The position numbers were made by a program, and so were the translations under genes. The notes under the pieces were generated by a model, which did not search any database, was not told the origin of the DNA, and saw only the letters and a program-made list of their open reading frames with translations. This document shows, in pieces, positions 38,141 through 48,358 of a DNA stretch of 64,000 nucleotides. Origin of the DNA: an uncultured delta proteobacterium. Lineage in GTDB: Bacteria > Myxococcota_A > Polyangia > Fen-1088. Position 1 is the first letter of the stretch. The number at the start of each line of letters is the position of its first letter. Location of the stretch: the NCBI GenBank assembly GCA_963796685.1, contig CAWCMR010000013.1:1-64000 (forward strand). The letters are read 5' to 3'.

Positions 38141-38384
38141 GAGCACCGAACGGTTTGAAACCTGAGCAATTTCCGGATTCTAACCACAGAGGACACAGAG
38201 AACACTGAGACGGATGAGAAATGAAGGGTTCGGATCGAGATCCGGAAACCCTTCATTCTCTGGGCCTCTGTGCCCTCTGTGTTCTCTGTGGTGAAAAAGG
38301 GCTTGTGCGTGCTCTGCACGGCGGCCTCGGCAGCGCCAGGCAATCCCTTGGATTCAGGAGGAATTCAACCCGTTCGGTGCTCTA
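38139..38384. mobile_element. MITE family B with nested ACCACAGAG.ACACAGAG palindrome
   Basis: 21-bp TIRs with one mismatch, TAGAGCACCGAACGGTTTGAA / TTCAACCCGTTCGGTGCTCTA; internal palindrome at 38183-38292. Confidence 0.8.
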
Positions 38385-40802
38385 CGGGCTCGTCGGCAGC
38401 TTGCGCACGTAGAGCCTGAGCGACTCGCGCAGGAGGGGGCGATGGAAGAGACCGTCGACCTCGGCGGGCAGGTCGCGATTGCACCGCGTGTCCACCACCA
38501 AGAACGCAGCTTGTTGCAATGCCTGCGACAGGTCTCCGATGGGTGATTCCGGCGATGCCCAGGGTCTATCGGGATCGGGAATGACCAGACTGCCGAGCGA
38601 GTAGATCCCCTCGGCGTATGGCCCTTGGCAGGTCAGCATGACCACCCGGTCGCGCAGCCCGGGTGGCGGTGGCGTGGCTGGCATGCGAGCGATGGTGTAC
38701 TGGCCGATGGAGACGGGGGTCACGGTGTAGTTGAGGGCGAAGCCCAGGAACGCCAGATCGCTGGCCAGCGAATTCCAGCCCGTGACGTGGTCGGTTTCCC
38801 AAAGCAGGTGCGTGACGCCCAGGCTGGCAAGCTGGCCATAGATCGCCGCTGGCGACCGGAGCGCGGCATAGCTGAAGCGGCTCTGCCACTGATCGTCGAC
38901 CACGCGCACCCCGAGCCCGAGCTGAAGTTGGATCTCGTGCACCAGCACGACAGCATCCTTCGGCAGGGTCTCGCCGATCTCGCCCATTGCGCCATAGGGC
39001 CGCAGACGATGCTCGGTGCGCAGGAAGCCCGAGGCCAGGAAATTGGAATCGATGCGCAGAGGCGAGTCGTACGCGATGTTGTGCGTGGGAAGGAACGGGA
39101 CGTCGCCGCCCCAGATCATCTGCACCGCCACCAGGACCACCACCAGCGCGCGCACCACGAGGTTGCGGCGACGCCAGATCAAGATGAGCGCGGCAGCAGT
39201 GGTCGCGGCCATGATGGGCAGCCAGGCTTGCAGGTAGCGGTCCTGGTGGTTGGTGAGATACCAGAACACGATGGCGACCATTACGCCGATGCAGGCCAGC
39301 CACAGCCGAACGCCCGCGCGTACGAAAGGCAAGCACAGCAGGGTCAAGGTGAAGAGCGAGCCGAAGACCGGAACGTCGTGGTGGAACGACCACCAATCGT
39401 TGGGCTTGAACGAGAAGGTGAGGGTGGCCAGGAGCGCATCCTTCACCCCTTGCCAGCCCGGGCTGGGCGGGGCCTGGAAGGACATGAACACGCGCAAGGC
39501 CGCGGGTGAATCCGCCGTCCAGGGATGCACATGGAGCCAGCGGTAAAGCACCGGATAAAGCGGGTCGCCATACCAGATCCAATTCGTCAGCCAGTGGGGC
39601 GCGCTCAGCGCCAGGGCTGTCGCGCCGCAGGCGAGCACGGTTCCGAGCACCGGTTGGCGCCGCCCGCGAAGACACCGGATGGCCAGCCACCCGGCCCGGA
39701 CGACGAAGAGACAGGCCGGGAACACGAGCACGGCCCAAGCCGAATACTTCGACATTTCGACGGCCGCGGCCAAGGCTCCGAACAGGATGCCGTCGCGAAC
39801 CGACCACGACGTCCACACCCGGACCAACGCCAGCACCAGGGGGATGCACCACAGCGCCGCCATGTGGTCGGCGCCCGCGTGCAGGTTTCCGTCATAGAGG
39901 AAAATCCCCGGGAATAGAAAAATCGCGACCCAGGTCTTGCGGCCGGACGCGCCCGGAATCAAGGCTCGAACCAGGGCCGGGATGCTGGCGATGGTGGCGA
40001 GAAAGACCGCCAGCTCGAGGTGGGCGCACAGCTCCAGCTTCTGGAACAGCAGGCCGCCGGGGAGCAGAAAAGCCCAGGTGTAGACCAGGCTTGCCGAGTG
40101 TGGGTACGCCGCCAGCCACCAGCCCTCGGGCGAGGGTCGCACGGCACCCTCCAGGGCGTACTGCTGCGCGATGGGCAGGTGGTACCAGCGCGCGTCCCAA
40201 CTGAACGGGGCCGGTGAAAGGACCTGGAAGTACAGCAGGCCGATGGCGCCCGCACCAAACACGATGAGCGCGAGATCGGTGAAGGTCTGCGCCCGAACCA
40301 GTCCGCGCCAGCCGCGAACGACCCGGCGCAACTGCCCGAGCCCGGACAGCAAGAAGGCGAGCGGCAGCAAGGCGAACACGACGCCGTTCAGGGCTCCCGC
40401 CAGCCCGAGAAGAAAGATCGCCAGTTGAAACGCGAGCACCCCGACGGGGAAGGCGAGAACGAGATCGGCCGGGCTCTGGCAGGGAAGTCGCACGAGGCGC
40501 GACGAGATGAAACATCCCGCCGAAGCGCAACTGGCCGCCCACAGGCTGGCCAGACCGCCAACCAGTAGGTAGTGCCAGAACAGCCAGTTCTGGATCGGGT
40601 AGTGCTGGTGCACCACTCCAAGGAAGATCGCGATGGCCGCGACCAGCGCAAGAGCGAGAAGAACCGTCGAGATTCGCTCCTTCCATGAACGGTTGAGAGA
40701 CGCAGGCGTCTCTTGGGAAGCCTCGCGAAGAGGCTCCCCGTTGGTCGATGGGCTGGTCATGGCGGCGCCATCATGCCCTGACGTGCTGGAGCGCAACAAC
40801 AT
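38382..40802 (-). CDS. Multi-pass membrane protein, probable GT-C (PMT/ArnT-like) glycosyltransferase
   Basis: Many TM helices; WDARWYHLP, KYS, GDPLYP and RYL motifs typical of GT-C folds. Start may be 40760. Confidence 0.6.
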   Translation of the reverse strand: MLLRSSTSGHDGAAMTSPSTNGEPLREASQETPASLNRSWKERISTVLLALALVAAIAIFLGVVHQHYPIQNWLFWHYLLVGGLASLWAASCASAGCFISSRLVRLPCQSPADLVLAFPVGVLAFQLAIFLLGLAGALNGVVFALLPLAFLLSGLGQLRRVVRGWRGLVRAQTFTDLALIVFGAGAIGLLYFQVLSPAPFSWDARWYHLPIAQQYALEGAVRPSPEGWWLAAYPHSASLVYTWAFLLPGGLLFQKLELCAHLELAVFLATIASIPALVRALIPGASGRKTWVAIFLFPGIFLYDGNLHAGADHMAALWCIPLVLALVRVWTSWSVRDGILFGALAAAVEMSKYSAWAVLVFPACLFVVRAGWLAIRCLRGRRQPVLGTVLACGATALALSAPHWLTNWIWYGDPLYPVLYRWLHVHPWTADSPAALRVFMSFQAPPSPGWQGVKDALLATLTFSFKPNDWWSFHHDVPVFGSLFTLTLLCLPFVRAGVRLWLACIGVMVAIVFWYLTNHQDRYLQAWLPIMAATTAAALILIWRRRNLVVRALVVVLVAVQMIWGGDVPFLPTHNIAYDSPLRIDSNFLASGFLRTEHRLRPYGAMGEIGETLPKDAVVLVHEIQLQLGLGVRVVDDQWQSRFSYAALRSPAAIYGQLASLGVTHLLWETDHVTGWNSLASDLAFLGFALNYTVTPVSIGQYTIARMPATPPPPGLRDRVVMLTCQGPYAEGIYSLGSLVIPDPDRPWASPESPIGDLSQALQQAAFLVVDTRCNRDLPAEVDGLFHRPLLRESLRLYVRKLPTSP

Positions 40803-41413: not shown

Positions 41414-42760
41414 ATGCAAGAGCAGTCTGAAATCGCGCGCCGCCTTTCGCCACGAGCGCACGCGTTGACCCTGGAAATCGTGGCCGAGGCGCGCGCCGAG
41501 TGGGGCTTCGCCACGGACATTCTGGCCCGTGCCTTTCGCGAACGACGCGATCTGGCCAGCAGCGACCGGCGCATGGTGGCCGAAGCCGTCTATGGCCTTC
41601 TGCGCTGGGAGCGGCTGCTCGAGGCCATCGTCGAGGAAATGCTGTCGTCGTCGCGCGGGCGGCGCGAGGCGATCTCGGAAATGGCGCGGCAGGAGTTGAA
41701 GCTGCTGGTGTACGAGCTGCGCAACGGCATTCCGGCCGAGGCGGTCCAAGCCGACGTGCGCAGACTGGCGGGCCGCGAGTTGAACTTGGACAAGGCCACT
41801 GCCGAGAACGCCGGCCTGGCGGGCCGCGAAGGCGTGGATCGCGAGGCCATACGCGTGTCGTTCCCCACCTGGCTGTTTCAACGCTTCATCGATAGCCATG
41901 GTGAAACTGGGGCAACCACGCTGGCCACGGCGATGAACACGCGGGCGCCGATGTGCGTGCGCGCCAATACCGTGAAGGCAACGCGTGACGAGCTCGTCGT
42001 CCGCCTGGCCGAGGAAAGGATCGTGGCGCAGCCGACGCGGCTGTCCCCGGTCGGGCTTTGCCTCGAGACCCGCGTGAACGCCTTCGGCCTGACCGCGTTT
42101 CGCGAGGGCCTTTTCGAGGTCATGGACGAAGGAAGTCAGCTCGTGGCCGAGGCCGTGGCGCCGCCGCCGCGCAGCCGCGTGGTCGACGCCTGCGCAGGGG
42201 CAGGGGGCAAGACCTTGGCGCTGGCGGCTATGCTCGCCAACCAGGGCCGCATCCTGGCCCTCGACACCAGCGGCAAGAAGCTGGAAGAGCTGCGGCGGCG
42301 GGCACGGCGCGCCGGGATCTCCAACCTGGCCGCGCGCGAGGTCGGCGGCCCCGCGTTGCCGGCCGAGGCCAAGCTGGGCGCCTGGGATCGGGTGCTGGTC
42401 GACGCGCCCTGCTCGGGCCTGGGAACCCTGCGCAGAAACCCCGAGGCGCGCTGGCGGCTCACGCCCAAGGCCGTGGATGCCTATCCCGCGGATCAGCTTG
42501 CCCTGCTGATTGCCTACGCGCCCTTGGTGGCCGTCGGTGGTCGCTTGATCTATGCCACCTGCTCGGTGCTGCGCGAAGAGAACGACGCCGTGGTCGAGCG
42601 CTTTCTGCGCGAGCGATCGGATTTCGTGGTCATGCCCATCAAGGAGATCTGGGGCAAGGCGCGCGCAACGGAACTGGGCGACGAGACCTTCCTGCGCCTG
42701 CTCCCGCACGTGCACGACACCGACGGCTTCTTCGCCGCGGTCTTGCGACGCAAAGACTAA
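41414..42760 (+). CDS. RsmB/NOP-family RNA m5C methyltransferase
   Basis: DEGSQL, DACAGAGGK, VDAPCSG, YATCS, TDGFF. Confidence 0.9.
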   Translation: MQEQSEIARRLSPRAHALTLEIVAEARAEWGFATDILARAFRERRDLASSDRRMVAEAVYGLLRWERLLEAIVEEMLSSSRGRREAISEMARQELKLLVYELRNGIPAEAVQADVRRLAGRELNLDKATAENAGLAGREGVDREAIRVSFPTWLFQRFIDSHGETGATTLATAMNTRAPMCVRANTVKATRDELVVRLAEERIVAQPTRLSPVGLCLETRVNAFGLTAFREGLFEVMDEGSQLVAEAVAPPPRSRVVDACAGAGGKTLALAAMLANQGRILALDTSGKKLEELRRRARRAGISNLAAREVGGPALPAEAKLGAWDRVLVDAPCSGLGTLRRNPEARWRLTPKAVDAYPADQLALLIAYAPLVAVGGRLIYATCSVLREENDAVVERFLRERSDFVVMPIKEIWGKARATELGDETFLRLLPHVHDTDGFFAAVLRRKD

Positions 42761-42769
42761 GGCTGTGTC

Positions 42770-43303
42770 TCACTCGTCGCCGGAGGCGGCAAGGAGCTGG
42801 GTCAAGTTGCGGGTGGTGGTGAAGGTCCTGGGCTTCATGCGGTCGATGTAGAGGGTCCCGTCCAGGTGGTCGATCTCGTGCTGCAGAATGCGCGCGTACC
42901 AGCCGCTGGCTTCGATCTTCACGGGCGCTCCATGGTGATCGAGGGCGTCGACGGTCACCGCCTCGGCCCGGGGCACCAGGGCCTGGAAGCCATCGATGCT
43001 GAGGCAGCCCTCGTAGTGCTCGACGAGCCCCGGTCCGAGCGTGAGCTGCGGGTTGACGAGGACGTGAAAGGGGACCGGCGCGCGCTCCTTTTCAGGTACC
43101 TGGGCAATATCCTCGATGACCGCGAGTCGCAGCGGTAGGCCGACCTGCGGTGCGGCCAAGCCCACGCCGGGCGCCTCGCGCATGGTCTCGCGCATCCAGG
43201 CGATGAGTTGCTGGATCTCCACGCTCTTCACCTCGTCGGGGGTGAGCGGTTGCGTGCCACTGCGGAGCACGGGAGCGCCGACTTGGACGATCTTGAGAAG
43301 CAT
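42770..43303 (-). CDS. def: Peptide deformylase
   Basis: GVGLAAPQ, EGCLS, QHEIDHLDG. Confidence 0.96.
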   Translation of the reverse strand: MLLKIVQVGAPVLRSGTQPLTPDEVKSVEIQQLIAWMRETMREAPGVGLAAPQVGLPLRLAVIEDIAQVPEKERAPVPFHVLVNPQLTLGPGLVEHYEGCLSIDGFQALVPRAEAVTVDALDHHGAPVKIEASGWYARILQHEIDHLDGTLYIDRMKPRTFTTTRNLTQLLAASGDE

Positions 43304-43425
43304 AGACAAAGTATGCCCTTGACCGTCTCGGCGCGGAAATGGAATCACGGCCGTCGCCGCGTCGCAAGCGCTTGCTCCGATCCCCTCAGCGGGGCGGCGC
43401 GGTTCCGTCGTGTTACCATGATGGG

Positions 43426-44754
43426 ATGCAACCCTGCCGAGGTCCTCTGCGCGCCTTTCCGGTACGTGCTGGATTCGCCGAGATCGCGCAAGTCGTCGTC
43501 GTCGGCAGCCTGCTGTTGTTCGCGTCGCTCTCCGGGTGCTCCTCGACGGCGCGAGAGCCGGCCACGGCAGAGGACTCGGGAACCGCCGTCGGGATGAAGG
43601 ATGTGAGCGCGCCTGCCGAAGCGATCGATGGCCCCGCTGATCTGACCGGGCGATCCGACACGACCAGCGACGCCCTGGATCGCGCTGGACGCAGCGACAC
43701 GGGAAGCGATGGGCATGGCGACGACGGGACGACCGTGGACCTGGCACCTCTCTCCTGCCCTGCCAGCGCGACCGGCAATACGCCGCTCGGGACCGACGCG
43801 CCTCCTGCACACTGGAAAGTCACGGACGCGCTCACCTTCCTCGGCGTCGGGGGGACGGGAAGCTACGACCGCGTCGTCGACATGGCTCCTGGAAACTGGC
43901 CGCCTCCGTGCAGCGACGCCAACGCCTGCGTCAAGGCGAGCAAGTCCGTGTCCGGGCCCTTGGTTCCCTTCGACGAGGAGATGACCATGGTCTTCTCGGG
44001 TCCCATCGAGCTCTACGACATCGCTGTCTACGCGCCTGACGGCAGCGGGTACGCGCGCGTCTCGTATTGGAATCGCTGCGCGTCCGACAACCTGGTCTTC
44101 ATGAACAACCTCGGTGGCGGCAGTGTCAGCGGGGGGTGGACGGTGTGCGGCGGCAACAGCCAGTCCTACGCCTCGGCGGACGGCACCGCGGCCGCGCCAT
44201 CACCAACCCAGTTTGCCGGCTCGCTGGCCGACGGCATCGGCGTCAATGTGATGAGCGCCAGCCTGTGCCAGGGCACCGGCGACGGCAGCGAGTGCGGCTT
44301 CTACCGAGATGTGGGCTTACATGGATTCAAGGGCTCCGCCGACGGCAGCAAGCTCTTCGCGGTCAAGATGCGCATGCCGGTCGGCACGGTTACGCCGGCT
44401 TATTGGATCCTGCCGGCCCAGGTGGTGCGAACGGCCCAGTACGGGTGCAACTGCCGTGGCATGGGCGGTGCCGGTGGCTGCGGCGAGCTCGATGTCGCCG
44501 AGGTGCTTTCGTCCGACGACCCCATGGCGGCCACGTCGACCATCTATTCGTTCAAGTCGGTGCGCAACGGGAACGGCTCCACGTTCCAGCGCCCGGCCCT
44601 TGCCAGTGCCACCTTCGTCGTGATCTTCGACGGCGTGGTCGGCAGCATTTCGCTGCGGCGGCTGGACGCGAGCGCCTTCGACTTTGGCCCGGCAATCGCC
44701 GCCTCGGTCGTGGCGGCATGGCAGGCAAATCAGGGCGTTGCTTCGCAGATGTGA
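43426..44754 (+). CDS. Lipoprotein homologous to fungal TOS1/YJL171C (DUF2403+DUF2401), putative circularly permuted GH16-like beta-1,3-glucanase
   Basis: Lipobox LSGC; GPLVPFDEEMTMVFSGP, VFMNNLGG, GNSQSYASADG, CGFYR, HGF, PAYWIL..VRTAQYG..CNC, GCGELDVAEVL (ExDxxE). Confidence 0.75.
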   Translation: MQPCRGPLRAFPVRAGFAEIAQVVVVGSLLLFASLSGCSSTAREPATAEDSGTAVGMKDVSAPAEAIDGPADLTGRSDTTSDALDRAGRSDTGSDGHGDDGTTVDLAPLSCPASATGNTPLGTDAPPAHWKVTDALTFLGVGGTGSYDRVVDMAPGNWPPPCSDANACVKASKSVSGPLVPFDEEMTMVFSGPIELYDIAVYAPDGSGYARVSYWNRCASDNLVFMNNLGGGSVSGGWTVCGGNSQSYASADGTAAAPSPTQFAGSLADGIGVNVMSASLCQGTGDGSECGFYRDVGLHGFKGSADGSKLFAVKMRMPVGTVTPAYWILPAQVVRTAQYGCNCRGMGGAGGCGELDVAEVLSSDDPMAATSTIYSFKSVRNGNGSTFQRPALASATFVVIFDGVVGSISLRRLDASAFDFGPAIAASVVAAWQANQGVASQM

Positions 44755-44765
44755 GGAGGCCGTTC

Positions 44766-45941
44766 ATGATGAAAGTCCACGCGCGAGGGCTGTTCCGGGT
44801 GCTGCTCGGGCTCGCCACGGCATGCGGTTCGGGCGGCGGCAAGAGCAGCGCCGTGCATGACGGCGCCATGTCTGGCGATCTCGGCCCCGACCTCTTGCAA
44901 AGCTCCGGCGGTTCGCCAGGTACCGGCGGCGAAGCGGGTTCTGGTGGCGGGCCAGGCACCGGCGGCAAGCTCGGCACGGGCGGCGTGGTGGGCAGCGGCG
45001 GCGGAGCCGGCGCCACCGCCGGCGCGGGCGGGACCGCGCCGCCGCCGGGATTCTGGGACGCAGGCTCGATACCGACCGCCAAGAACGTGATGATGTTCGT
45101 CTTTCTCAACCGCACCAACGGCAAGTACGCCGACAGCGAGGTCTACTGGAGCTTCAAGAGCGGTTCGATTTCCGAGCTCCATTCCATTGCCGAGCAGGCG
45201 AGCTACGACATGCCCGCCAATTCCTCGGGTCGGATGTACTTCTACTTGTGCGCCAAGAGCGATGCGACCTGCGCCAGCGACCCGAGCAAGAGCCAGTACT
45301 TCGACTTCATCGAGCACACCATCGGCCCGACCCAATACAACGGCAACACCACGCGGGTCGATGCCTTCGGCATCAAGATCGCCATGCGCCTGCATTGCGC
45401 CGACGGGTTCGACGACGCCGTCGGCGAAGACTACGCAACCTTCTCGGAAGATCGCGCGGCGACCTTCCAGCGTTTCATCGACGCCGTTCCCGATGCGTTC
45501 AAGCCGCTCGCGCAAGCCCCCCACGCTCCCTATCGCATCGTCGAACCCGGCGCGGACGGATTCAAGACCGGCGGTGCGTATGCCAATTACTACGATTCCT
45601 TCGTCGATTCCTTGTGGGCGGCCAACGGCCTGACGGTCGCCAAACCCGGCCCGAACGGCAGCGGGCTGGGATCGTATCCGGATCTTTCGGCCGCCATCTT
45701 CCGCCACGTCGGCAACCTCGCCGGAACCTTCGACCCGAGCGGCAAGCTGCTCGACAAGACGCTCTGGAAGGACAGCTCGACCTTCTATCAAACCGCCCCC
45801 GCCGACTACTACGCCAGGTTCTGGCACGACAATGCCCTCGGAGGGCGCGCGTATGGCTTCTCCTACGACGATGTCGGCAGTTATTCGAGCTACATGTCGC
45901 ACGCCAACCCGCAATACATGCTGGTTGCGATCGGCTGGTAG
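44766..45941 (+). CDS. GH64 beta-1,3-glucanase lipoprotein with G/S/T linker
   Basis: RBS GAGGAGG; lipobox ATAC; SGRMYF, FDFIEHT, NTTRVDAFG, FYQTAPADYYARFWH, AYGFSYDDV. Confidence 0.85.
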   Translation: MMKVHARGLFRVLLGLATACGSGGGKSSAVHDGAMSGDLGPDLLQSSGGSPGTGGEAGSGGGPGTGGKLGTGGVVGSGGGAGATAGAGGTAPPPGFWDAGSIPTAKNVMMFVFLNRTNGKYADSEVYWSFKSGSISELHSIAEQASYDMPANSSGRMYFYLCAKSDATCASDPSKSQYFDFIEHTIGPTQYNGNTTRVDAFGIKIAMRLHCADGFDDAVGEDYATFSEDRAATFQRFIDAVPDAFKPLAQAPHAPYRIVEPGADGFKTGGAYANYYDSFVDSLWAANGLTVAKPGPNGSGLGSYPDLSAAIFRHVGNLAGTFDPSGKLLDKTLWKDSSTFYQTAPADYYARFWHDNALGGRAYGFSYDDVGSYSSYMSHANPQYMLVAIGW

Positions 45942-46261
45942 ATCGCCGCGCCTGGCACGCTCCCTGCAAAAGCGGGAGACATGAGGTCGATCGGCTGCTG
46001 GCCCGTGTTCACCAACCGCAAGATTCGCTTGGCCGTGGGCCATCTTTTCGTATTTCTCGTCGCGGTGTGCGCAAGCGGCGCGGTGGCGGGTGATGACTTT
46101 TCGACACCGGCTGCCACCGAGGCCGATCCGTCTCCCCCCAATGGCTATCTCTCGCTCGGCGTGGGCGACACGTCCATCCGGCCCACGGCGACCGCCAGTC
46201 TCTCGGCGGACTGGGCGCACGTGCTCTTGGGCGTGCGCGCGAGCAGGACCACCTCCTTCTC

Positions 46262-46317
46262 CCTCGATGCCCTTCGAGACGCTGGTTCGGGACCTGAAGC
46301 GTCGTGGCAAGCTGTAG
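46262..46317 (+). pseudogene. C-terminal remnant of a CopG/RHH-type antitoxin
   Basis: PSMPFETLVRDLKRRGKL* overlaps the RelE start, the usual layout for the antitoxin tail. Upstream DNA encodes an unrelated signal-peptide fragment. Confidence 0.55.
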
Positions 46318-46561
46318 GATCGAAGTCAAGAGGTCCGCCGCCAAGGAGGTCGCCGGGCTCCCGAAGGCGGACTGCCAACGCGTCGTCGCAAAGCTCCAGG
46401 CTCTTGCGGACGAGCCGCGGCCGCATGGCTGCGAGAAGCTGACCGGCGACGAGAAATGCCGCGTACGACAGGGTAACTACCGGATCCTCTACGAAATCGA
46501 CGACGATGCCAGAACGATCACCATCGTGAAGGTCGGGAACCGCAAAGAGGTCTATCGCTGA
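46304..46561 (+). CDS. RelE/ParE-family toxin
   Basis: SAAKE, LADEPRPHGCEKLTG, RVRQGNYRILYEI, VKVGNRKEVYR. Confidence 0.88.
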   Translation: MASCRIEVKRSAAKEVAGLPKADCQRVVAKLQALADEPRPHGCEKLTGDEKCRVRQGNYRILYEIDDDARTITIVKVGNRKEVYR

Positions 46562-46573
46562 CGGAGCGGGTCT

Positions 46574-46677
46574 GCCCAACGGCTTGCCGTTAAGCTGCAG
46601 CCCGCCGCCGAGTCGGCCTGTCGATTCTACACCGATCTTCCGGCGGTGGGATTGACAGCTGCAACGGGATGTTAGGC
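46574..46677 (-). mobile_element. Integron attC site 1
   Basis: Minus strand R'' GCCTAAC ... imperfect palindrome ... R' GTTGGGC; contains the stop codon of the upstream cassette gene. Confidence 0.8.
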
Positions 46678-47046
46678 GCCACCTGAAAGGACGTGCTTCT
46701 TGAGTCCGTTGAGTTCCTCGATGATCCGAGAGACCTTCTGGGGAACCTGCCACTCCATGCCGAATCGTTGGAGTTCCGCTCTTAGGTATCGAACGTCAAC
46801 CGCGTCACCAAGTCTCTCCACCGCGCGGATCGCCGCCTCGAAAAGGGCTGGATGCTCGGCGAGTACTTCTGGTTCGACTCCAATCCAAACGCCCGGTCCC
46901 TGCCATTCCCATTGCCGTATGCTTTGGGCCAGTGCCCGTAGCCCCAGATCCATCGCACCCAGGATTAGAAAGTGCCTCACGAGTTCGACATCCCCATCTC
47001 GCATCGCGAGAACAGACGATCCGTTCGTGAAAAGATGATGTCCCAT
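46672..47046 (-). CDS. Hypothetical gene-cassette protein
   Basis: ORF exactly fills the space between two attC sites; its TAA lies within R''. Confidence 0.7.
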   Translation of the reverse strand: MGHHLFTNGSSVLAMRDGDVELVRHFLILGAMDLGLRALAQSIRQWEWQGPGVWIGVEPEVLAEHPALFEAAIRAVERLGDAVDVRYLRAELQRFGMEWQVPQKVSRIIEELNGLKKHVLSGGA

Positions 47047-47052
47047 GTGAGC

Positions 47053-47123
47053 GCCTAACGGCTTGCCGTTAAGCGGTGGGCGGCCTTCTGCGGCCGACCA
47101 TCCGCTTCAAAGGCTTGTTAGCC
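47053..47123 (-). mobile_element. Integron attC site 2
   Basis: Minus strand R'' GGCTAAC ... R' GTTAGGC, 71-bp imperfect palindrome. Confidence 0.85.
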
Positions 47124-47446
47124 GCCGACAAACCCGGGTGCACGCCCGTGACAATGATCTTCTTGTCGCCAAAGGCCGCGACAATTTCTAGCCGTCCTCC
47201 GATGGCAGAAAGATATCGCTGCAGAGTGGAAATCTGGCAATCGTCGAAACGTTCCCGACCCTCAAGCCGGGAGACGTCGGCCTGGTCCATCTGAGCGACG
47301 TCGGTAACATCAACCTGCGTCTTTCCCGCTGCTTCGCGGAGAGTTCGCAGTGTCAGATGAACCCCCCGTTGGGCGCGCAAGCCTCGACCGAGAACCCGTA
47401 TAGGGTCCTCATCCAGCTCAATCTTCCGCTTGGTTGCGTGGCTCAT
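47069..47446 (-). CDS. XRE-type HTH protein, probable antitoxin
   Basis: LRTLREAAGKTQ..MDQADVSRLE..STLQRYLSAIGGRLEI; overlaps the stop of the upstream toxin gene. Confidence 0.8.
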   Translation of the reverse strand: MSHATKRKIELDEDPIRVLGRGLRAQRGVHLTLRTLREAAGKTQVDVTDVAQMDQADVSRLEGRERFDDCQISTLQRYLSAIGGRLEIVAAFGDKKIIVTGVHPGLSAANKPLKRMVGRRRPPTA

Positions 47447-47732
47447 GTCTCTCCTCCAGTTTCATAAACTTCTCGTTCGCCTCCGGTCGTCGGACGGGCA
47501 CTGATGATCCGGTCACGTGCCCCGCGTTCGACGTGAACGACGTACAGCAAGCGTTCGCGTAGCGATGTCCCGATGACCACCAGCCGGCCGATTCCTGACC
47601 CATCATCAAGATAGACCGCGTACGGATCGGCAAAACCGTCGCGGCTTCGGGGAACGACACGCCGTGCTTCGCAAGATTCGACGCAGCCTTGGCCGAGTCC
47701 CATTCAAAGTCGCCATCGAACACCGTTGGCAT
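47443..47732 (-). CDS. BrnT-family (DUF497) toxin, frameshift near 47635
   Basis: FEWDSAKAASNLAKHGVSFPEAATV, then a shift at a T4 run into ADP...RIISAR. Confidence 0.8.
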
Positions 47733-47742
47733 CGCATTCACA

Positions 47743-47771
47743 AGTATGGGATACAACCCATAGTGAGTCAA
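47743..47771 (-). promoter_or_regulatory. Sigma70-type promoter with palindromic operator for the TA cassette
   Basis: TTGACT-17 bp-CATACT with a TATGGG-N6-CCCATA inverted repeat overlapping the spacer and -10 box. Confidence 0.7.
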
Positions 47772-47794
47772 GCAACTTGCAGGATCGTTCGCGC

Positions 47795-47865
47795 GGCGAA
47801 CGCTTTGCCGTTCAGCTGCGGGCGGCCGTCCGCGGCCGACTGACAGCTGCAACGGCATGTTATCC
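47795..47865 (-). mobile_element. Integron attC site 3
   Basis: Minus strand R'' GGATAAC ... R' GTTCGCC, 71 bp, related to sites 1 and 2. Confidence 0.8.
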
Positions 47866-48177
47866 GGCAACCCTCCCCATTCCTGACGTGCTGTCGGATT
47901 GGTAGGAGACGAGCTTGGGTGGTCCCGCGAAGAATTCCCGGACAAGGGACACAACCTCAAGAGCCGAGCCACCTGATTCATACGCCTCAGCGGCAGCGCG
48001 CGTTTCCCAAATGGTCACAGCCATGAACGGGTCGCCGTCAACCTCGGGAACCAACAAAAGACACGCTACGTTTCCAGGGCAGGCTCGCACCTTGGGAACG
48101 GCCAACTCGTTGTATGTCTTCTTCAGGCGATCGACTCCGCCCGGCTTGACTGCAAACGAACCCACTCTGATCCACAT
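47860..48177 (-). CDS. ABM (antibiotic biosynthesis monooxygenase)-domain cassette protein
   Basis: Ferredoxin-like pattern VKPG..PG..VTIWETRAAAEAY; TAA lies within R'' of attC 3. Confidence 0.75.
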   Translation of the reverse strand: MWIRVGSFAVKPGGVDRLKKTYNELAVPKVRACPGNVACLLLVPEVDGDPFMAVTIWETRAAAEAYESGGSALEVVSLVREFFAGPPKLVSYQSDSTSGMGRVAG

Positions 48178-48358
48178 GAGACTGCTCCCTTCCCTCTGGC
48201 AGTTTGTACCTGTTGTCCGGACAAAACTACCGAATTCCCTCGATTTCGCGTGGTTGGCGGTCGCGCTGGGCGCCTTGGGGCCTCGTGGCTGCTTCGTAAG
48301 CAGGATTCCGTCCGCGCGCGGGCGCTGCGTTTTAGCGACCGAGAGGGCCTTCGACTAT

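Follow-up and report, generated by a model that had tools for sequence, protein, structure and literature searches.

A pair of adjacent genes in a 64,000-nucleotide stretch of DNA from an uncultured delta proteobacterium (Myxococcota_A, Polyangia, Fen-1088; assembly GCA_963796685.1, contig CAWCMR010000013.1, positions 1 to 64,000; this whole stretch is hereafter the window) encodes a bacterial homologue of the Tos1/YJL171C proteins (gene A, product P0001) and a member of glycoside hydrolase family 64 (GH64; gene B, product P0002). On balance, the favored reading is that these genes form a two-gene, probably co-transcribed module whose products are two exported lipoproteins acting on beta-1,3-glucan outside the cytoplasm. 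The case is built on the family memberships and conserved catalytic residues of both proteins, on their modeled folds, and on the recurrent linkage of Tos1-like genes to beta-1,3-glucanase genes. Glucanase activity of the Tos1/YJL171C family was reportedly predicted in 2010. The activity of Tos1 is still listed as predicted in the yeast literature (PMC11657238).

Structure of the gene pair

Gene A extends from an ATG at 43426 to a TGA at 44752-44754 (442 codons), its homologues having the same M-Q beginning, and gene B from an ATG at 44766 to a stop at 45939-45941 (391 codons). The two genes lie on the same strand with a gap of 11 bp, in which GGAGG (44755-44759) stands 6 nt ahead of the gene B ATG, and a search for a terminator-like site between them found none; the tight, co-oriented pair of putative lipoprotein genes described in the initial annotation of this stretch is thereby upheld. 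The pair comprises the following features:

43426..44754, + strand: gene A, putative lipoprotein of the Tos1/YJL171C family, 442 aa, P0001 (open reading frame, translation, Pfam)
43426..43539, + strand: gene A signal peptide with lipobox LSGC (Cys38) at its end (by inspection; Cys conserved)
43540..43746, + strand: gene A linker, residues 39-107, low-complexity and rich in Asp, Thr, Ser, and Gly, a presumed tether (sequence)
43828..44037, + strand: Tos1_N domain (PF10290), residues 135-204 (Pfam)
44047..44721, + strand: Tos1_C domain (PF10287), residues 208-432, predicted GH16-like beta-sandwich (Pfam, AlphaFold model, structure comparison)
44485..44502, + strand: ExDxxE motif, E354-L-D356-V-A-E359, predicted catalytic site (conservation, hhalign)
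44755..44765, + strand: spacer between the genes, 11 bp with GGAGG (sequence)
44766..45941, + strand: gene B, putative lipoprotein of the GH64 beta-1,3-glucanase family, 391 aa, P0002 (translation, Pfam PF16483, Protein Data Bank (PDB) sequence matches, Foldseek)
44766..45050, + strand: gene B signal peptide, lipobox ATAC (Cys20), and Gly-rich linker, residues 21-95 (sequence)
45312..45362, + strand: GH64 catalytic segment, E183 to D199, FIEHT...TTRVD (alignment)

By inspection, each protein has a signal peptide and a lipobox Cys; in gene A this Cys is invariant in all 18 aligned homologues, the linker differing among them in sequence and length, and the homologues of gene B have lipoboxes of the LAAACSSGGG type. 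Given flexible, low-complexity linkers behind a presumably lipid-modified Cys, both proteins are probably located on the outer membrane, the cell surface, or vesicles. A complex prediction with the Tos1 domain and the GH64 domain yielded no answer, its score of 0.00 falling short of the 0.32 mark, and counts neither way.

The gene A protein as a member of the Tos1 family

Measured against a Pfam cut-off of 27 bits for each of PF10290, PF10287, and PF16483, P0001 matches Tos1_N at 57.4 bits (1.9e-15, residues 135-204) and Tos1_C at 155.7 bits (1.9e-45, residues 208-432), and thus contains both domains of the family in N-then-C order; NCBIfam holds no model matching P0001 or P0002. The five motifs from which the initial annotation had recognized the family, namely GPLVPFDEEMTMVFSGP, GNSQSYASADG, CGFYR, PAYWILPAQVVRTAQYG, and GCGELDVAEVL, are all present and in order, with spacing slightly off in two of the five patterns as it had written them. 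The GH16-type ExDxxE motif is intact, as claimed: across 84 family sequences, bacterial and eukaryotic, E354 and E359 are invariant and D356 occurs in at least 90%. The family further has 10 invariant Cys beyond that of the lipobox.

Gene A is therefore like fungal Tos1/YJL171C in having both Pfam domains in order, the conserved Cys pattern, ExDxxE, and a predicted GH16-like fold. The two differ in their means of export and attachment, in that gene A has a lipoprotein signal and an Asp/Thr/Ser-rich linker, whereas yeast Tos1 has a signal peptide of the eukaryotic kind, glycosylated regions rich in Ser and Thr, and linkage to the wall or to glycosylphosphatidylinositol (GPI); the gene A product is a bacterial lipoprotein-type precursor and not a eukaryotic wall protein bound by alkali-sensitive or GPI linkage. 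Such linkage describes the yeast members and not the Pfam family as such (PMC11657238).

Relation of the gene A protein to GH16

When P0001 was compared with PDB sequences by phmmer, no solved structure, GH16 enzymes included, was matched at E ≤ 1. With 84 family sequences as input, an AlphaFold (AF2) model covering residues 108-442 reached a predicted local distance difference test score (pLDDT) of 94.8 and a predicted template modeling score of 0.93, and in an exhaustive VIA-align search with this model GH16 enzymes made up 12 of the top 13 rows (Z 6.0-7.7, 133-160 residues aligned, root-mean-square deviation 3.1-4.5), led by 5jvv (Z 7.7), 4bow (7.1), 7wwc (7.0), and 3dgt (7.0). Lectin-type beta-sandwiches are also among the matches (1ofs, Z 6.0; ERGIC-53, 1r1z and 8jp4, 5.7). 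The gene A model and the four leading GH16 enzymes, which are laminarinases and other enzymes active on beta-1,3-glucan, have in common a beta-jelly-roll in which the ExDxxE strand comes after a strand of the W-P-A-x-W type; unlike solved GH16 enzymes, the gene A product is rich in disulfide cysteines and carries a further domain at its N-terminus.

In the model, the stretch matched by native GH16 chains runs from about residue 97 to residue 335, and that matched by the engineered circular permutant 1ajo covers residues 16-270; these ranges are consistent with the permuted strand order that is said to have been predicted in print for the Tos1 family. Alignment by hhalign of a profile of 18 bacterial homologues with an ordinary GH16 protein from a related genome (L006) gave a probability of 90.7 and an E value of 1.3e-6, pairing CGELDVAEVL with CGEVDIMEIL and PAYWILP with PAFWLLG, an equivalence of side chains that comes from the profile alignment and not from superposition in three dimensions. 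The beta-jelly-roll fold of GH16 (clan GH-B) is present in the model at moderate scores; the native GH16 strand order is not, nor is direct sequence membership, Pfam assigning PF10287 and no GH16 model. As modeled, the gene A product is a beta-sandwich related to GH16, with its strands in another order and with the ExDxxE nucleophile/acid-base motif retained. As a separate observation, PF10287 weakly matches the same ordinary GH16 gene (L006:1030-2094, genome G195) at 28.2 bits, just over the cut-off of 27, so that automated counts of "Tos1" in bacteria can include GH16 enzymes.

The gene B protein as a GH64 enzyme

The assignment of gene B to GH64, likewise made in the initial annotation, was borne out by a Pfam match of P0002 to PF16483 (105.2 bits, 5.6e-30) and by sequence matches to the solved GH64 enzymes 9vp9 (4e-42), 5h9x (4.5e-38), and LPHase (3gd0, 5.3e-7). 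All six Foldseek matches of the P0002 model (pLDDT 84.3) at E ≤ 0.001 are GH64 enzymes, the best being 5h9x (1.5e-18, query-normalised template modeling score 0.67), and thaumatins come next (ranks 7-19, probability 0.95-0.99). Residues E183 and D199, 16 residues apart, are invariant in 34 of 34 aligned GH64 sequences and match the corresponding Glu and Asp of 9vp9 and 5h9x in the alignments. The catalytic pair of LPHase is Glu154/Asp170, accompanied by Thr156 and Thr167 (PMC4758615); E183 and D199 were mapped onto this pair by the 16-residue spacing and by Thr at +2 and +13, with no direct alignment.

Gene B shares its fold, the FxE...TTRVD segment, and a C-terminal Y-G-F-x-Y-D-D region with LPHase (3gd0), PbBgl64A (5h9x), and 9vp9. 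Unlike the solved GH64 enzymes, it has a lipoprotein signal and a Gly-rich linker and no carbohydrate-binding module, and its catalytic domain of about 296 residues is some 90 residues shorter than that of 9vp9 because two regions are shortened. A GH64 search with the gene B type returned 1442 matches at E ≤ 0.001 among 8000 scored, the named ones including Polyangia, and gene B belongs to a GH64 subfamily that is abundant in Polyangia. By prediction, then, gene B is a compact, catalytically intact GH64 endo-beta-1,3-glucanase.

Linkage of Tos1-like genes to beta-1,3-glucanases

Among the 13 genomes of the window's genus, the same three carry both the Tos1-like and the GH64 families, the other ten carrying neither, and the gene pair is present in both congeners that carry the families. 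A pattern-based scan, in which each prokaryotic species was represented by one genome, found 23 loci, titled as Myxococcota-type or unspecific (delta)proteobacterial bins. A GH64 gene stands in the flank at three of these (L011, L032, and L033) and at six of 62 metagenome loci (L044, L045, L046, L047, L078, and L082). It lies next door in all six other loci at 73% identity or more (L011, L032, and L044-L047), with the order reversed (GH64 first) in L045 and L046, and only two clades show the pairing, one of them being the window's close clade. The initial annotation had offered the GH64 pairing as contextual support for a glucanase; at these frequencies the pairing itself is uncommon, and what stands is the more general point that the Tos1 domain is linked to beta-1,3-glucanases.

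That linkage is broader than had been expected. Genes of the PF11790 type (Glyco_hydro_cc), which we take to be the GH128 beta-1,3-glucanase family, adjoin Tos1-like genes in L028 and L033, and tblastn with the L028 protein found a GH128-type sequence beside a Tos1-like gene in L047, L078, L079, L080, and L092, of which L079 and L080 look like duplicates of one contig; the loci with GH128 neighbors are spread over at least four subclades of the bacterial tree. A row of Tos1-like, GH64, and GH128-type genes is found in L078, and in L033 (5758-10767, from a "Myxococcales bacterium" bin) four putative lipoprotein genes follow one another, encoding a Tos1-like protein, an RCC1-repeat protein, a GH64 protein, and a GH128-type (PF11790) protein, with similar signal peptides and Gly/Thr/Ser linkers. 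In eukaryotes, PF11790, Tos1_N, and Tos1_C occur in single chains of two brown algae (P0132 and P0134; Discosporangium and Nemacystus), and in the oomycete proteins OPEL and I06 a GH64-TLP/thaumatin-like domain, a Gly-rich stretch, and a Tos1-like domain are fused (PMC7219551; PMC4915311). Since the same two partner folds are neighbors in bacteria and fusion partners in eukaryotes, the Tos1 domain would be expected to share the substrate of the beta-1,3-glucanases, and this linkage by neighborhood and fusion is the best available evidence in support of a common beta-1,3-glucan substrate. Other attachments were also observed: P0132 and P0134 carry a PAN domain, and one of them WSC domains, and other oomycete relatives have PAN, ricin-type lectin, or DUF7492 domains ahead of the Tos1 domains.

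The gene pair is like OPEL and I06 in joining a Tos1-like ExDxxE domain and a Gly-rich stretch to a domain of the GH64/thaumatin-like superfamily (PMC7219551; PMC4915311). OPEL, however, is one polypeptide with the thaumatin-like domain first, whereas here there are two genes, usually with the Tos1-like gene first, and the partner is a full GH64 protein with its catalytic residues in place of a thaumatin-like domain; the gene pair is accordingly an analogue of the single-polypeptide OPEL architecture and not a member of it. As BLASTP found no similarity between P0002 and the OPEL-like protein P0155, the parallel rests on fold superfamily and not on sequence. An operon conserved across the bacterial homologues was considered and rejected, the 45 neighboring open reading frames from 20 loci being mutually unrelated and including one glycoside hydrolase by Pfam.

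Distribution and phylogeny

An HMMER scan of 1.84 billion cluster representatives yielded 360 relatives of gene A at E ≤ 0.001. Thirty representatives were looked up, and the 16 that had an organism name were all eukaryotes: ascomycetes, one basidiomycete, seven oomycetes, two brown algae, two green-lineage algae, one amoebozoan, and the parabasalid Tritrichomonas. The family is thus not mainly fungal, as the initial annotation had stated it to be. A word-indexed search gave 273 matches, the few named ones being Polyangiaceae, Cystobacter fuscus, and Melittangium boletus; every bacterial homologue with a name belongs to the Myxococcota. It had also been asked whether the family would prove widespread and already characterised in bacteria. 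The gene is rare, occurring in 3 of 89 genomes of the window's order, all in one genus of 19, and 400 further genomes, sampled evenly from the phylum, produced two weak matches, of which the one inspected was an ordinary GH16. Bacterial members are already entered at NCBI as "DUF2403 domain-containing lipoprotein", and no publication on the Tos1 homologues of bacteria came up in a literature search in which subscription journals were thinly covered; this branch is annotated but, as far as that search reaches, unstudied.

P0001 is 34-39% identical to two named ascomycete representatives and 36-46% identical to the named oomycete ones, the oomycete Tos1 domains being the nearer by this measure. 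The phylogenetic check proposed in the initial annotation was run as two quick maximum-likelihood trees (82 and 83 rows, unrooted, with no outgroup). In both, all Myxococcota rows fall in one clade (Shimodaira-Hasegawa-like approximate likelihood ratio test support 98), placed among oomycete, algal, amoebozoan, and basidiomycete branches and apart from the ascomycete Tos1 clade. Inter-domain transfer of the Tos1 family is likely. Strict bacterial monophyly is not established by these trees: P0129, from a Chlorokybus atmophyticus record, lies inside the bacterial clade in both of them and P0133, from an Ostreobium quekettii record, in one. These two may be genuine genes of the algae, may have been transferred, or may reflect contamination of the assemblies with bacterial DNA. 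The N-terminus of P0129 ends in FASC, which is lipobox-like.

Genomic setting

The pair is preceded by rsmB and def and followed by small genes of the ParE, helix-turn-helix (HTH)/BrnT, and ABM types and then by a histidine kinase gene. In the congener G401, rsmB is followed by the kinase region about 138 bp on, and the segment corresponding to about 42.76 to 48.36 kb of the window (42760-48358), comprising def, the gene pair, the toxin-antitoxin cassettes, and the ABM-domain gene, is missing; the congener G410 has a different stretch of about 23 kb at the same site. This absence and this replacement place the gene pair in a variable island. Three attC-type repeats lie downstream of the pair:

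46573-46678, + strand: attC-type repeat (RYYYAAC ... GTTRRRY cores, strong hairpin)
47053-47124, + strand: attC-type repeat (same cores, strong hairpin)
47795-47866, + strand: attC-type repeat (same cores, strong hairpin)

They separate small cassettes encoding ParE, an open reading frame of no known kind, and an HTH/BrnT pair. The source genome has about 80 attC-type sites, grouped in arrays, and three integron integrases that score higher than the TIGR02249 cut-off (C9:33503-34444, C22:232551-233489, and C6:1518-2459), and large attC arrays are also found in G401 and G410. An integron cassette was nevertheless rejected as the explanation of the pair's mobility: the pair abuts the three sites and is bounded by none detectable, and a DNA profile made from 26 attC-type copies of the source genome recovered the three downstream sites (46573-47866) and found no site flanking the pair, its second copy, or the related loci that carry the pair.

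The second copy of the cassette (G000 contig C22:186987-190661, minus strand; L001) is similar to window positions 43406-45946 only, in three blocks of 86%, 93%, and 99% identity. Its gene A linker is shorter by 148 bp, a loss that shifts the signal peptide out of frame, and its GH64 gene is missing about 747 bp; the copy is a paralogue in decay or else a fragment of a co-binned strain. Elsewhere in the window, a gene at 38382-40802 (- strand) encodes an 806-aa multi-pass membrane protein beside a rubrerythrin-like gene and has no Pfam match at E ≤ 0.001.

Possible functions

In the favored reading, the gene A product would cleave or transglycosylate beta-glucan chains, and such an activity would complement the GH64 enzyme on insoluble, branched wall glucan; most likely, the pair would serve predation or feeding by breaking down the walls of fungi and oomycetes or of what remains of them. 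An antifungal role, which the initial annotation had suggested, is plausible. GluM of Corallococcus, an outer-membrane beta-1,6-glucanase counted among the antifungal glucanases of myxobacteria, offers the same idea of a cell-surface glucanase directed against fungal walls; the protein families and bond specificities differ, and for the present pair a link to predation is putative.

Several observations weigh against this reading. The structural match to GH16 is moderate, and the tool itself warns that Z values below 8 are common for unrelated beta-sandwiches; the check for a GH16-like fold that had been proposed at the outset was split, since Foldseek with the gene A model found no match in the PDB at E ≤ 0.001. 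The lipoprotein status of both proteins was judged by eye from their N-termini. The source genome is an incomplete bin (88.6% complete, 6.5% contamination). GH64 is missing within about 6 kb at 20 of the 23 genome loci, and 53 of the 62 metagenome loci have neither a GH64 nor a GH128 neighbor, many of those contigs being short. Moreover, the same literature search, with its thin coverage of subscription journals, found no demonstrated glucanase activity for any Tos1 member; recombinant P. parasitica OPEL was inactive on laminarin and beta-1,3-glucan (PMC4915311), and plates of laminarin or Avicel showed no clearing with Py. insidiosum I06 that had been produced cell-free (PMC7219551).

These two negative assays lend themselves to the explanation that gene A is not a beta-1,3-glucanase at all but a binding or targeting subunit, or an enzyme for another bond (beta-1,6-glucan, mixed-linkage glucan, or a glucan-protein link), that travels with true glucanases. 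The domain's habit of being joined to or standing beside a complete GH64, GH128, or thaumatin-like domain is accessory-module-like, and the lectin-type beta-sandwiches among the structural matches point the same way. Mutation of the motif abolishes the elicitor activity of OPEL (PMC4915311). Conservation of ExDxxE across bacteria and eukaryotes, in alignment with the GH16 motif, would nevertheless be unexpected for a pure binding module, and the assays were made on cell-free or refolded proteins of a family rich in conserved cysteines; we regard this explanation as unlikely. A little less doubtful, and sharing the biochemistry of the favored reading, is scavenging, in which free or dead beta-1,3-glucan (fungal remains, algal laminarin, callose, or bacterial curdlan) would serve as a carbon source and no killing would be involved. 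The locus has no sign of killing, its neighbors being housekeeping genes (rsmB and def) and toxin-antitoxin cassettes; GH64 lipoproteins of the gene B type are very common, as the search counts above indicate, and GH64 occurs without a Tos1-like gene in five other genera of the window's family. Lipid anchoring on long linkers would, however, better fit contact-dependent action than free secretion, and the patchy, accessory distribution suits scavenging or attack, two uses that are not exclusive. Far less probable than either is remodeling of the cell's own surface polysaccharide, spore coat, or matrix during development, which would mirror the role assumed for yeast Tos1. Yeast proteins of the family are wall-bound and are classed with glucan-remodeling enzymes (PMC4664879; PMC11657238). 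The bacterial genes, by contrast, are accessory: 10 of the genus's 13 species lack them, as do the order's 76 other genomes. The island that holds the pair varies between strains, the second copy is decayed, and no glucan synthase or development gene is adjacent.

A bolder form of the favored reading, which we put forward as improbable in its full extent, is that Myxococcota adopted a eukaryotic wall-remodeling enzyme, Tos1, as a lipid-anchored weapon that opens the walls of fungi or oomycetes taken as prey and is obligately used with GH64 or GH128. If that were true, the Tos1 domain would be a general helper of beta-1,3-glucanases whose activity, for example debranching, cutting of glucan-protein or glucan-chitin links, or transglycosylation, is missed by standard laminarin assays; the bacterial pair would then offer the first simple system for uncovering it.

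Significance

Tos1/YJL171C proteins are abundant in yeast walls and secretomes, and a member of the family is the active part of the oomycete elicitor OPEL. The bacterial branch, tied repeatedly to two unrelated beta-1,3-glucanase families, provides independent genomic evidence on the substrate, and the value of the finding lies in this recurrent GH64/GH128 linkage and in a tractable system for the prediction of 2010: the bacterial proteins are small and unglycosylated and are suited to testing alone or with a natural partner. For the study of gene flow between eukaryotes and predatory bacteria the pair is likewise a clean case, and it is one more candidate for the enzymes possibly used by myxobacteria on fungal or oomycete walls.

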